A stretch of 25,455 nt of DNA from a virus (IMGVR_UViG_2872152978_000001:1-25455), one strand, 5' to 3'; numbered from the stretch's first letter, positions 1-23,877 are shown. The notes: generated by a model from the letters alone, not told the origin. Made by a program: numbers and translations.

Positions 1-819
1 ATGTGTCAGGTATTTGGTGTATCCAGGAGCGGTTATTACAACTGGGTACAGCATGAACCCTCAGACAGAAAACAAAGTGATGAGCGGCTAAAACTGGAGA
101 TTAAGGTGGCACATATCCGCACTCGCGAAACATATGGAACCCGGCGGCTCCAGACGGAGCTGGCAGAGAATGGCATCATCGTTGGTCGTGACCGACTGGC
201 ACGTCTTCGTAAGGAGCTAAGGCTACGCTGTAAGCAGAAACGCAAGTTCAGAGCGACTACGAACCCGAACCACAATCTGCCAGTTGCGCCAAATCTGCTG
301 AACCAGACGTTCGCTCCTACAGCACCAAATCAGGTCTGGGTGGCGGACCTGACGTATGTTGCCACACAGGAGGGATGGTTGTACCTCGCTGGCATCAAAG
401 ATGTTTATACGTGCGAAATTGTCGGCTACGCCATGGGAGAGCGCATGACAAAAGAGCTGACAGGTAAAGCCCTGTTTATGGCGCTCAGGAGCCAGCGCCC
501 ACCTGCCGGGCTAATCCACCACTCTGATCGAGGTTCACAGTACTGCGCATACGATTACCGGGTCATACAGGAGCAGTCTGGTCTGAAAACATCAATGTCG
601 CGTAAAGGTCACTGTTACGACAACGCTCCGATGGAAAGCTTCTGGGGAACGCTGAAAAATGAGAGCCTGAGCCACTATCGTTTTAATAACCGGGATGAAG
701 CCATCTCAGTAATACGGGAATACATTGAGATTTTCTACAATCGTCAGCGTCGTCACTCTCGTCTGGGGAATATCTCCCCGGCAGCCTTCAGGGAAAAATA
801 TCATCAGATGGCTGCTTAA
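1..819 (+). CDS. IS600 OrfB transposase (IS3-family DDE catalytic part)
   Basis: 272-aa ORF identical to the OrfB of the two complete copies; has the IS3-family DDE region (HSDRGSQY ... NAPMESFWGTLK). Confidence 0.9.
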   Translation: MCQVFGVSRSGYYNWVQHEPSDRKQSDERLKLEIKVAHIRTRETYGTRRLQTELAENGIIVGRDRLARLRKELRLRCKQKRKFRATTNPNHNLPVAPNLLNQTFAPTAPNQVWVADLTYVATQEGWLYLAGIKDVYTCEIVGYAMGERMTKELTGKALFMALRSQRPPAGLIHHSDRGSQYCAYDYRVIQEQSGLKTSMSRKGHCYDNAPMESFWGTLKNESLSHYRFNNRDEAISVIREYIEIFYNRQRRHSRLGNISPAAFREKYHQMAA

Positions 820-862
820 AAAAAGAACAAATGGTAGTGTCCGCTATTGCCAGTACACCTCA
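1..862 (+). mobile_element. IS600 (IS3 family) copy 1, partial; left part lies outside the window
   Basis: Bases 1–862 are identical to the orfB-to-right-end portion of the two complete 1264-bp copies at 13439–14702 and 22594–23857; all three end ...GCCAGTACACCTCA. Confidence 0.9.
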
Positions 863-1158
863 AACCAATAACGGATTCCATACACAATACGGCCAACAGA
901 GAAAGATACCTGTGCTCACGCCATTGCTTATATTGGCTGGTTACAATGTGCACTATCAATTTTTTAAATAACAAATTCTTAAAACCACATCTGTATAAGG
1001 AATTTTTAAGGTTCGTGGGATAGCTTGACTGTAAAAATTACAGGAGCTACAAAAATGAACCGATTCTCAAAAACTCAAATTTATTTACATTGGATAACGC
1101 TGCTTTTCGTTGCAATAACCTATGCCGCGATGGAACTCCGTGGCTGGTGGATTTGCCC

Positions 1159-2064
1159 CTATATTTCCAGACATCTGTTATCACTTAACCCATTACAAGC
1201 CCGCTGCCGCAGATATTCCCGTGGCGAGCGATAACCCAGCGCACTATGCGGATGCCATTCGTTATAATGCTCGAACGCCTCTGCAAGGTTCTTTGCTGCC
1301 GTTAACCCGTCTGGTTTGGGCATGATACTGATGTAGTCACGCTTTATCGTTTTCACGAAGCTCTCTGCTATTCCGTTACTCTCCGGACTCCGCACCGCCG
1401 TGTTCTTCGGTTCAAGTCCCAACATCCGGGCGAACTGGCGTGTTTCATTAGCCCGGTAGCATGAACCATTATCCGTCAGCCACTCCACTGGAGACGACGG
1501 AAGATCGTTGCCGAAGCGGCGTTCCACCGCTCCCAGCATGACGTCCTGTACTGTTTCACTGTTGAAGCCGCCGGTAGTCACCGCCCAGTGCAGTGCCTCA
1601 CGATCACAGCAGTCCAGCGCGAACGTGACACGCAGTCTCTCTCCGTTATCACAGCAGAACTCGACCCCGTCAGAGCACCATCGCTGATTGCTTTCTTTCA
1701 CGGCCACTCTGCCTGTATGTGCCCGTTTCGATGGCGGTACAGCAGGCTTTCGCTCAAGCAACAGCGCATTCTGGCGCATGATCCGGTAAACACGTTTGGC
1801 ATTGATCGCAGGCATACCATCAAGTTCTGCCTGTCTGCGAAGCAGCGCCCATACCCGACGATAACCATACGTGGGCAGCTCTCCGATAACATGGTGTATA
1901 CGGAGAAGCACATCCGTATCATCAGTGTGACGACTGCGGCGGCCATCCATCCAGTCATCGGTTCGTCTGAGAATGACGTGCAACTGCGCACGCGACACCC
2001 GGAGACAACGGCTGACTAAGCTTACTCCCCATCCCCGGGCAATAAGGGCGCGTGCGCTATCCAC
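1159..2064 (-). CDS. insD: IS2 transposase InsD (OrfB)
   Basis: 301-aa ORF recognised as IS2 InsD (integrase core). Confidence 0.9.
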
Positions 2065-2387
2065 TTTTTTGCCCGTCCATATTCAACGGCTTCTTTGAGG
2101 AGTTCATTTTTCATCGTTTTCTTGCCGAGCAGGCGCTGGAGTTCTTTAATCTGCTTCATGGCGGCAGCAAGTTCAGAGGCAGGAACAACCTGTTCTCCGG
2201 CGGCCACAGCAGTAAGACTTCCTTCCTGGTATTGCTTACGCCAGAGAAATAACTGGCTGGCTGCTACACCATGTTGCCGGGCAACGAGGGAGACCGTCAT
2301 CCCCGGTTCAAAGCTCTGCTGAACAATTGCGATCTTTTCCTGTGTGGTACGCCGTCTGCGTTTCTCCGGCCCTAAGACATCAATCAT
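2022..2387 (-). CDS. insC: IS2 InsC (OrfA, HTH)
   Basis: ORF beginning [24 protein letters not shown]... recognised as IS2 InsC; the six-frame ORF is trimmed to the internal Met at 2387. Confidence 0.85.
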
Positions 2388-3490
2388 CTGTACTCCAATG
2401 ACTAGTCTAAAAACTAGTATTAAGACTATCACTTATTTAAGTGATACTGGTTGTCTGGAGATTCAGGGGGCCAGTCTAGCTGGTTTCCTAAAGGTAGTAG
2501 TACTTATCTGCTGATGCGAGAAACACATTACAATGCGGGTATATTCGTTTGGGTGTTAATGTTTTCACGCCTGATTATAAAACACCGTTATAGTGATCCT
2601 TCTATTGTGCCACCGCCACCTGCCTGGCAAATGAAAGCGGCTTCGCTAATGCACATCATGCTTTATATAACCTTCCTTGCACTTCCTCTGCTGGGGATTG
2701 CTTTGATGGCTTACAGTGGAAAATCGTGGAGTTTCCTTGGTTTCAATGTGTCTCCCTTTGTTACCCCAAACAGCGAAATTAAAGCACTGATATAAAATAT
2801 TCACGAAACCTGGGCAAATATAGGTTACTTTTTAATCGCAGCTCACGCTGGCGCAGCTCTCTTTCATCACTACATTCAGAAAGATAATACTCTGTTACGA
2901 ATGATGCCTCGCCGCAAATAAGTCGATCCCCTGACAAGGAAATGTGAACCATGGACATCAACGCGTCATAAATGTTTACGCAAGTGCACAATGCACCCTT
3001 TCCACTATCAACAAGGAGGAGCAGAAACTGTGTAAATCGTACAATGGTAAGACTTATCAAAAATACAGGTTAATTTTGGTATTTAAACCTTTTTTACTTG
3101 TTAGTATGATACAAAGGCTTTCAAAAAAGCTGGGAAATTCAACAACTCTTGGAAATTATGGACTTTGTCCCGCGGCTTTAATCTGACGGCCGCGTTCCTT
3201 TTTTGACTCAATTATTGACCCCTTCTCTACGCAACTTCAGTTCCCACCACCAACTTTGCGGCAGTTTCATAGGATGAATGTCTAAAAGAATAATGGTGAG
3301 CGATAAGAAAACGACTGAATAACTGCACATTTTCGCTCGAAAGCTTCCTGTCAGATCCATAGCGAATCAAGTGCTGAATGTCACAGTATCGAACAGAAAA
3401 CAGTGACGATCTAACCCTTCAAGAATATTCTACGATTGTTCTGTTTAGGAAAAGTAAGGCGGGAAGTCGGGAGATAAGTCATTGATAAAG

Positions 3491-22376: not shown

Positions 22377-22593
22377 GAATCAACTCCCATCAGCTTTTTC
22401 GTAGTAGTTTTATTCCTGCCAATAGTTAAAATTGCATCGGCAGAAAATAATCCGTTTGATGCAAGAGCGATTTTTTCAGCGTAATTTGTTTCGCCGGTAT
22501 ATTCTGTGCGAGGCAATTTTCCGTTATCCATCCATTTATAGATTGCTCTTTGGCTGACACCACAAACGTCGGCCACAACAGCAACGCGAACAG
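22373..22593 (-). pseudogene. YdaS-like Cro/HTH regulator, 5'-truncated by IS600 copy 3
   Basis: HTH segment VAVVADVCGVSQRAIYKWMDNGKLP; the ORF start lies inside the IS600 left end (chimeric MPFYFRKECPLNSGYL prefix). Confidence 0.6.
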
Positions 22594-22657
22594 TGAGGTA
22601 GCCTGAGTTTAACGGACACTCCTTCCTGAAATAGAATGGCATCAGAAGGAGCTAATA

Positions 22658-22960
22658 ATGAGCAGAAAAAACCAACGTTACTCTAAAGAGTTCAAAGCCG
22701 AAGCTGTCAGAACGGTTCTTGAAAATCAACTTTCGATCAGTGAAGGCGCTTCCCGATTATCCCTTCCTGAAGGCACTTTAGGACAATGGGTTACCGCCGC
22801 CAGAAAAGGGCTCGGTACTCCTGGTTCCCGCACGGTGGCTGAACTGGAATCTGAAATTCTGCAACTGCGTAAGGCGTTAAATGAAGCTCGCCTTGAGCGA
22901 GATATATTAAAAAAAGCAACAGCGTATTTTGCACAGGAGTCGCTGAAAAATACGCGTTAA
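22658..22960 (+). CDS. IS600 OrfA
   Basis: Identical to 13503–13805. Confidence 0.92.
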   Translation: MSRKNQRYSKEFKAEAVRTVLENQLSISEGASRLSLPEGTLGQWVTAARKGLGTPGSRTVAELESEILQLRKALNEARLERDILKKATAYFAQESLKNTR

Positions 22961-22995
22961 TCGAACAATGGCGACAACAATTTCCCATTGAAGCG

Positions 22996-23814
22996 ATGTG
23001 TCAGGTATTTGGTGTATCCAGGAGCGGTTATTACAACTGGGTACAGCATGAACCCTCAGACAGAAAACAAAGTGATGAGCGGCTAAAACTGGAGATTAAG
23101 GTGGCACATATCCGCACTCGCGAAACATATGGAACCCGGCGGCTCCAGACGGAGCTGGCAGAGAATGGCATCATCGTTGGTCGTGACCGACTGGCACGTC
23201 TTCGTAAGGAGCTAAGGCTACGCTGTAAGCAGAAACGCAAGTTCAGAGCGACTACGAACCCGAACCACAATCTGCCAGTTGCGCCAAATCTGCTGAACCA
23301 GACGTTCGCTCCTACAGCACCAAATCAGGTCTGGGTGGCGGACCTGACGTATGTTGCCACACAGGAGGGATGGTTGTACCTCGCTGGCATCAAAGATGTT
23401 TATACGTGCGAAATTGTCGGCTACGCCATGGGAGAGCGCATGACAAAAGAGCTGACAGGTAAAGCCCTGTTTATGGCGCTCAGGAGCCAGCGCCCACCTG
23501 CCGGGCTAATCCACCACTCTGATCGAGGTTCACAGTACTGCGCATACGATTACCGGGTCATACAGGAGCAGTCTGGTCTGAAAACATCAATGTCGCGTAA
23601 AGGTCACTGTTACGACAACGCTCCGATGGAAAGCTTCTGGGGAACGCTGAAAAATGAGAGCCTGAGCCACTATCGTTTTAATAACCGGGATGAAGCCATC
23701 TCAGTAATACGGGAATACATTGAGATTTTCTACAATCGTCAGCGTCGTCACTCTCGTCTGGGGAATATCTCCCCGGCAGCCTTCAGGGAAAAATATCATC
23801 AGATGGCTGCTTAA
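22996..23814 (+). CDS. IS600 OrfB transposase
   Basis: Identical to 13841–14659. Confidence 0.92.
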   Translation: MCQVFGVSRSGYYNWVQHEPSDRKQSDERLKLEIKVAHIRTRETYGTRRLQTELAENGIIVGRDRLARLRKELRLRCKQKRKFRATTNPNHNLPVAPNLLNQTFAPTAPNQVWVADLTYVATQEGWLYLAGIKDVYTCEIVGYAMGERMTKELTGKALFMALRSQRPPAGLIHHSDRGSQYCAYDYRVIQEQSGLKTSMSRKGHCYDNAPMESFWGTLKNESLSHYRFNNRDEAISVIREYIEIFYNRQRRHSRLGNISPAAFREKYHQMAA

Positions 23815-23877
23815 AAAAAGAACAAATGGTAGTGTCCGCTATTGCCAGTACACCTCACCATGTGCAGGTGTAAGTAA

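Follow-up and report, generated by a model that had tools for sequence, protein, structure and literature searches.

IS600 at the junctions of two internal deletions in a decayed ipaH prophage of Shigella

The viral sequence IMGVR_UViG_2872152978_000001:1-25455 (25,455 nucleotides; "the window" below is this whole stretch) carries three copies of the insertion sequence (IS) IS600 in one orientation, and raises the question of whether each copy arrived by simple insertion or marks a place where DNA was lost. A reading made from the sequence alone had found no target-site duplication at any of the three and had taken all of them as the signature of IS-mediated recombination and deletion. Comparison with related genomes divides them. 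Copies 2 and 3 each sit exactly at the junction of a collinear deletion, one IS600 per junction and no duplication, and the breakpoints and relative order of the two deletions can be read; copy 1 is a plain insertion. The deletion signature thus stood for copies 2 and 3, where 23,127 and 4,510 bp have been replaced, and fell for copy 1, which has an AAC duplication.

The window is a decayed ipaH prophage at the tRNA-Ser gene serU, lying between zinT/yodB and mtfA. Its bases 1-18,104 are found without mismatch in a Shigella chromosome (L015; CP026840.1, GCA_002950155.1), and bases 13965-25455 are 100% identical to another locus of our comparison set (L007). The remnant spans 3491-24536, bounded by its attachment (att) repeats, and has the features of a tRNA-integrated prophage: att repeats derived from the 3′ part of the tRNA gene at both ends, and an integrase remnant adjoining the tRNA. 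To the left of attL come yodB with an IS2 just upstream, then IS600 copy 1. Coordinates are collected in Table 1.

Deletion junctions at copies 2 and 3

Copy 2 is the junction of a deletion of about 23.1 kb, not a simple insertion. Our reference for it was the near-intact prophage, of some 45 kb, of the enteroinvasive Escherichia coli (EIEC) strain FDAARGOS_944, which occupies the same zinT / serU-mtfA site and with which the window aligns collinearly. The gene order of this prophage is tail-fibre and ipaH module, baseplate, tail, head, terminase, lysis, tRNA genes, Q, RusA, DUF968, replication genes, immunity region, exonuclease, xis, and int. Window bases 11693-13438 match its bases 20616-22358 at 99.7% identity, the match ending within the baseplate J gene, while bases 14703-17149 match 45486-47932 at 99.8%, beginning within DUF968. 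At the two breakpoints the reference reads ...GGCACAC/CATCCCG... on the left and ...GGAGATA/CTGAGCC... on the right, and the flanks have the same order and orientation there, 23,127 bp apart. Absent from the window relative to this reference are most of baseplate J, the tail, head, terminase and lysis genes, the phage tRNA genes, Q, RusA and the 3′ end of DUF968. The missing Q/lysis/head/tail block, which the sequence-only reading had suspected IS600 of removing, lies exactly within this replaced segment.

The DUF968 remnant (14700-15458) is one open reading frame (ORF) of 252 amino acids in L028 and L030 and is split into ORFs of 168 and 78 amino acids in the window strain, which has therefore suffered an extra inactivating mutation.

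Copy 3 is likewise a deletion junction, of 4.5 kb. Here the reference was the Shigella contig AKMW01000052.1 (L012), which matches window bases 19590-22593 at 99.83% and 23858-25455 at 99.88% identity. Both sites are uninterrupted in it, the left reading ...GCGAACAG/TTTTGATT... and the right ...GGCTAAC/CCATGTGC..., and the two flanks keep their order and orientation, 4,510 bp apart. Lost at copy 3 relative to this contig are the first 11 codons of a cro-like gene, a cI-like repressor gene, an IS1, exonuclease remnants, a DUF4224 (xis-like) gene and int codons 1-149. The corresponding span in FDAARGOS_944 is about 6.1 kb.

Each of the two copies thus shows the pattern of a deletion scar: one IS, no duplication, and flanks that in an intact allele are collinear but stand apart. 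The earlier observation that the complete copies abut truncated genes holds for all four flanks, which fall within baseplate J, DUF968, the cro-like gene and the integrase gene. The collinearity also bears on whether the two copies might instead join two prophages, or distant chromosomal sites, through IS600-mediated inversion or translocation. Rearrangements of that kind do occur in the sister genomes L008 and L028, described below. All four flanks of copies 2 and 3, however, keep the order and orientation of single intact prophages with the same att sites, at 99.7-99.9% identity on either side of each IS, and we regard such joining as very improbable.

That the element is IS600 is borne out by all of the defining features examined. 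Copies 2 and 3 measure 1264 bp each and are 100% identical by repeat search and base-by-base comparison; window bases 1-862 are the final 862 bp of the element, identical to 13841-14702; and all three copies are on the + strand, hence direct. In 1,613 E. coli genomes, elements annotated "IS3-like element IS600 family transposase" match them at 99.1-99.8% identity. The terminal inverted repeats are of 27 nt, imperfect (70% complementary), and of the form TG...CA (TGAGGTAGCC... and ...GTACACCTCA). The reading frames are orfA (100 amino acids) and orfB (272 amino acids), with the Pfam families HTH_Tnp_1 and rve found on these products, and an A7G frameshift site at 13753-13760 is followed by a stem-loop at 13767-13800; E. 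coli copies carry the annotation "programmed frameshift". In its length, its TG...CA repeats, its orfA/orfB arrangement with a -1 frameshift at A7G and stem-loop, and its 3-bp duplication upon simple insertion, the element itself is no different from IS600 of the IS3 family, copies 2 and 3 being without duplications owing to the later deletions.

The flanking triplets are as first read: CAC/CTG at copy 2, CAG/CCA at copy 3, and AAC to the right of copy 1. For copies 2 and 3 we sought flank matches of 3 bp and of 4 bp and found none. The ends of the element are correctly placed, since two control insertions in E. coli show duplications at the same ends, one splitting chuA (4 bp, CTAC) and the other a capsid gene (3 bp, CTG). 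Nor can the absent duplications be an artefact of end placement, because IS600 copy 1, IS2, IS911 and IS1 in the same window carry duplications of 3, 5, 3 and 9 bp.

Copy 1 is unrelated to the deletions at copies 2 and 3. The sequence-only reading was correct in the coordinates, identity and common orientation of the three copies, and mistaken in treating this one as a partial element: it is cut by the window edge, with its left end 402 bp upstream, and is complete (1264 bp) at L015 3139-4402, where it reads ...GAGTTAAC/IS600/AACCAATAACGG with a perfect 3-bp AAC duplication. E. coli 23AR0922 (L016) has the uninterrupted site, GAGTTAACCAATAACGG, in which the two 30-nt flanks overlap by exactly AAC. 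The matching triplets that would speak for simple insertion thus appeared, once the termini were re-examined, at copy 1 and at neither of the others, so that the statement that no copy has a duplication is true of copies 2 and 3 and untrue of copy 1.

Recurrence of the junctions and order of the losses

We surveyed 50-nt junction sequences across some 30 related loci of Shigella. Exact matches to both copy 2 junctions were found in L022, L023, L026, L028-L030 and L032-L034, among them Shigella flexneri 6 strain 64-5500 (CP026811; PMC9455713). Wherever the locus extends far enough in these genomes, both copy 3 sites are there without interruption. Only a subset, L005-L007 and L009-L011, has the copy 3 junctions, Shigella dysenteriae 14 ATCC 49346 (CP026832; PMC10132075) being one of its members; in a sister genome an IS1 is nested inside copy 3. 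The copy 2 deletion is older and widely inherited, because its junction occurs where the copy 3 sites remain empty. The comparison of junctions with other Shigella genomes, proposed at the outset as a check, thus bore out the deletions, with both junctions recurring and the intact alleles confirming what was removed.

Assembly error does not account for either junction, since each is found again in complete and in draft assemblies made independently. It is scarcely credible, then, that point mutation erased the duplications of two simple insertions at copies 2 and 3, or that the junctions are products of misassembly at repeats. The general difficulty of assembling repeats is all that speaks for this, and it is answered by flanks that lie 23 kb and 4.5 kb apart in intact alleles and by recurrence of the junctions in many independent assemblies, contigs that span the whole IS among them.

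Probable recombination between direct IS600 copies

How did a single IS600 come to lie at each junction? We think it likely that copies 2 and 3 are the scars of two separate collinear internal deletions produced by recombination between direct pairs of IS600, to which copy 1 is unrelated; the two-copy recombination step is one that we infer. The ancestral state would be an ipaH-carrying prophage of roughly 45 kb at serU of the Shigella chromosome, now grounded. For each deletion, a second IS600 would have inserted near a first in the same orientation, with a duplication of its own, and host homologous recombination would have crossed over between the two 1264-bp repeats, removing the intervening DNA and one IS. 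The hybrid IS that survives would have its left target triplet from one parent and its right triplet from the other, and its two flanks would mismatch for that reason. The copy 2 event (~23.1 kb) came first and the copy 3 event (4.5 kb) later, and their net outcome is a prophage unable to excise, to replicate lytically, to lyse or to build particles, with ipaH intact. Reciprocal exchange among the copies now in the window is a separate matter: on cross-matching their flanks, neither left triplet (CAC, CAG) matched any of the right triplets (AAC, CTG, CCA).

Several points weigh against this account. A precursor of either deletion would have IS600 at one breakpoint only, flanked by its own duplication. 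None was found among the approximately 30 related Shigella loci, every one of which is either empty at the site or fully deleted. We also built the hypothetical precursor junctions (IS600 right end followed by CACCATCCCG...; ...GGAGATACTG followed by IS600 left end; IS600 right end followed by CAGTTTTGAT...; ...GGCTAACCCA followed by IS600 left end) and used them as queries against 5,426 complete E. coli genomes, a collection with none labelled Shigella, again finding no precursor; the sole hits, at about 50% coverage, were IS600 end pairs from closely spaced copies. The account needs four independent IS600 insertions in one prophage. Finally, the three copies are identical in the window genome, so that the polymorphism pattern of a hybrid IS is unreadable there. 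The orthologous copy 2 of L022-L024, L026, L029 and L030 differs from the window copy by three single-nucleotide polymorphisms, at IS600 positions 110, 337 and 542, all in the left 542 bp. Such clustering has a chance of about 0.08, which is not significant, and these differences are at most suggestive, the sites being too few; they are compatible with a hybrid IS or with gene conversion.

The missing precursor and the number of insertions needed are what a transposase-mediated, one-ended adjacent deletion would readily accommodate. In such an event a single resident IS600 attacks a nearby site in the same molecule and the DNA between is lost, there never having been a second copy. The product would be the same, one IS in a collinear deletion without duplication; two IS600 insertions in the prophage would suffice, not four; and no two-copy precursor would be expected, in keeping with its absence from the genomes examined. 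Were this true, IS600 would itself be removing the DNA beside it and so directly driving genome reduction in Shigella. We nevertheless hold it to be unlikely. The IS3 family moves by a copy-out-paste-in route through a circular intermediate, a route that does not by itself delete adjacent donor DNA. A well-studied case in the family, that of IS150 at rbs in long-term lines of E. coli, is reportedly explained by insertion followed by recombination. Repeated independent IS600 hits in sister strains, one 10 bp from the copy 1 site and another in int at window 24253, make the extra insertions plausible. Recombination between direct IS600 pairs is thus supported by the transposition route of the family, by the many independent IS600 hits at this locus and by direct precedent in Shigella. 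The precedent comes from experiments on the virulence plasmid of S. flexneri, in which a deletion between two IS600 copies already in place was observed (PMC5629016).

Copies 2 and 3, direct and identical, bracket 7,891 bp, and this 7.9-kb arrangement had been described as composite-transposon-like. We rejected a composite transposon, for its outer flanks, CAC and CCA, differ and the segment is native, in its collinear prophage position. The likeness ends with two identical IS bracketing a segment; there is no outer duplication, and no evidence that the segment ever moved.

Other insertions, sister genomes and the decay of the prophage

Four further IS elements lie in the window (Table 1), and IS2, IS911 and IS1 are simple insertions with no associated loss. 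The position of IS2 seems to be occupied also in a few non-Shigella E. coli, for instance 23AR0922, which could be through shared ancestry, transfer or an insertion hot spot. The 64 bp lost at ISEc22, which the empty sites of FDAARGOS_944 and Shigella L028 both retain, make this the third IS-associated loss in the window. DNA is missing only at the three window elements without duplications, namely IS600 copy 2, ISEc22 and IS600 copy 3.

Table 1. Features of the window, with positions counted from its first nucleotide.
Feature	Position	Strand	Basis
IS600 copy 1, last 862 bp in window; zinT-yodB intergenic, simple insertion	1..862	+	identity to 13841-14702; full copy in L015, empty site in L016
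AAC target-site duplication of IS600 copy 1, right-hand copy	863..865	.	L015 flanks compared with empty site
IS2, upstream of yodB; simple insertion, 5-bp GCTGG duplication, no associated loss	1148..2478	-	IS2 annotation in matching E. coli records; ends and flanks read
attL, partial copy of tRNA-Ser 3′ part, 62 nt; left prophage edge	3491..3552	.	direct repeat D4, 94% identical to 24475-24536
IS911; simple insertion, 3-bp TAT duplication, no associated loss	3751..4999	+	99.8% identical to annotated IS911; empty site in FDAARGOS_944
ipaH, type III secretion system effector E3 ubiquitin ligase, 547 amino acids, intact; cargo kept by remnant	6461..8104	+	ORF; ipaHe in matching records; Pfam LRR_TTSS and NEL
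IS1 in tail-fibre gene; simple insertion, 9-bp TTCGATGTT duplication, no associated loss	10925..11692	+	FDAARGOS_944 comparison; Pfam IS1 families
Baseplate J 3′ remnant, last 58 codons; left flank of copy 2, ends CAC	13263..13438	-	alignment stop at reference 22358; Pfam Baseplate_J_C
IS600 copy 2; CAC/CTG flanks, no target duplication, replaces 23,127 bp	13439..14702	+	FDAARGOS_944 alignment; junction in at least 10 other assemblies
DUF968 5′ remnant, first 252 codons; right flank of copy 2	14703..15458	-	alignment resumes at reference 45486; Pfam DUF968
ISEc22 (IS66 family); no 8-bp duplication seen, replaces 64 bp	17150..19589	+	99.8% identical to annotated copies; empty site comparison
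cro-like gene remnant without first 11 codons; left flank of copy 3, ends CAG	22373..22593	-	L012 empty site; intact gene 84 amino acids in L012, L019 and others
IS600 copy 3; CAG/CCA flanks, no target duplication, replaces 4,510 bp of L012 allele	22594..23857	+	L012 comparison; junction common to L005-L007 and L009-L011
Tyrosine integrase 3′ remnant, codon 150 onward; right flank of copy 3; callable ORF 23965-24447, 160 amino acids	23858..24447	+	alignment begins 447 nt into int of FDAARGOS_944 and EC20017429
tRNA-Ser(CGA), serU; attR repeat = 24475-24536	24475..24564	-	ARAGORN and repeat D4
mtfA, chromosomal gene right of prophage	24619..25455	+	right end of window, preceded by serU

Sister genomes show other changes at the locus. 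In L010 (CP026828.1, 7329-8580, corresponding to window 21915-22541) an IS911 without a duplication replaces 627 bp that include ydaT, which shows further IS-associated erosion of the same early region. L008 (CP026842.1, 8229-8632) keeps the int-side junction of copy 3, its left flank having been exchanged for DNA from another part of the chromosome, an IS911 fragment plus genes of the yceI/pyrC region. In L028 (CP026766.1, 398-1661) the IS600 that lies 10 bp from the copy 1 site is in the opposite orientation and joins the zinT side to int at window 24253, an arrangement that appears most simply read as an inversion. These last two point to IS600-mediated rearrangements at this locus. An ENA metagenome scaffold (L035, 2085-2100) joins window 10617, in a tail-fibre assembly gene, to 24250, in int, in inverted order with no IS between; it may be a genuine rearranged allele, or a repeat may have collapsed in assembly. 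Downstream of the window, yeeJ carries an IS600 with a GCT duplication in L006 (18243-19505) and L011 (18239-19501). The IS600 in yeeJ of L014 (8558-9821) has the left flank of these two and a different right flank (9 nt of right flank), and the alleles may be another pair from before and after a rearrangement.

IS-driven change is thus continuing at the locus, with further IS-associated deletions and replaced flanks in the sister genomes, and the suggestion that the IS600 copies could bring further deletion or inversion stands as to deletion. A single recombination between direct copies of the window could delete the early region (9.2 kb), the stretch with yodB, attL and ipaH (13.8 kb) or nearly the whole remnant (23.0 kb). 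Inversion is not to be expected from them, because it needs oppositely oriented copies, as apparently in L028.

The remnant resembles the cryptic lambdoid prophages of E. coli K-12 (Rac, Qin/DLP12 type) and other Shigella ipaH prophage remnants in being bounded by att sites at a tRNA gene. Such remnants have lost integrase function, lysis and structural genes and have kept cargo and early genes; the window remnant keeps its cargo, ipaH, and early-region genes (hok-like, ydaT, DUF968). It differs from them in that each of its two main losses is traceable, to the base, to an IS600 junction, and sister genomes reveal which came first. The ipaH gene is intact in this heavily decayed remnant and frameshifted in the otherwise near-intact EIEC prophage of FDAARGOS_944.

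The losses caused by IS on pINV, the virulence plasmid of Shigella (PMC5629016), and in the degradation of Shigella genomes (PMC7373316) are like those of the window in that identical direct IS serve as portable homology, the DNA between them is lost and a single IS stays behind. Unlike the pINV deletions, the window events are chromosomal, lie in a prophage and are ancient enough to be common to several serotypes or species, their precursor alleles not having been observed. Five IS, IS600 among them, have expanded in every Shigella species and are tied to genome degradation (PMC7373316).

A scar of this form is what IS-associated deletion ordinarily leaves. Decay of prophages and genomes through IS has already been described in Shigella, where IS-mediated decay and rearrangement are well documented, and the current understanding is unchanged. 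The locus illustrates clearly how a prophage is grounded by the expansion of IS: two IS600-associated deletions took every function for excision, lysis and particle formation, and the virulence cargo ipaH was spared.

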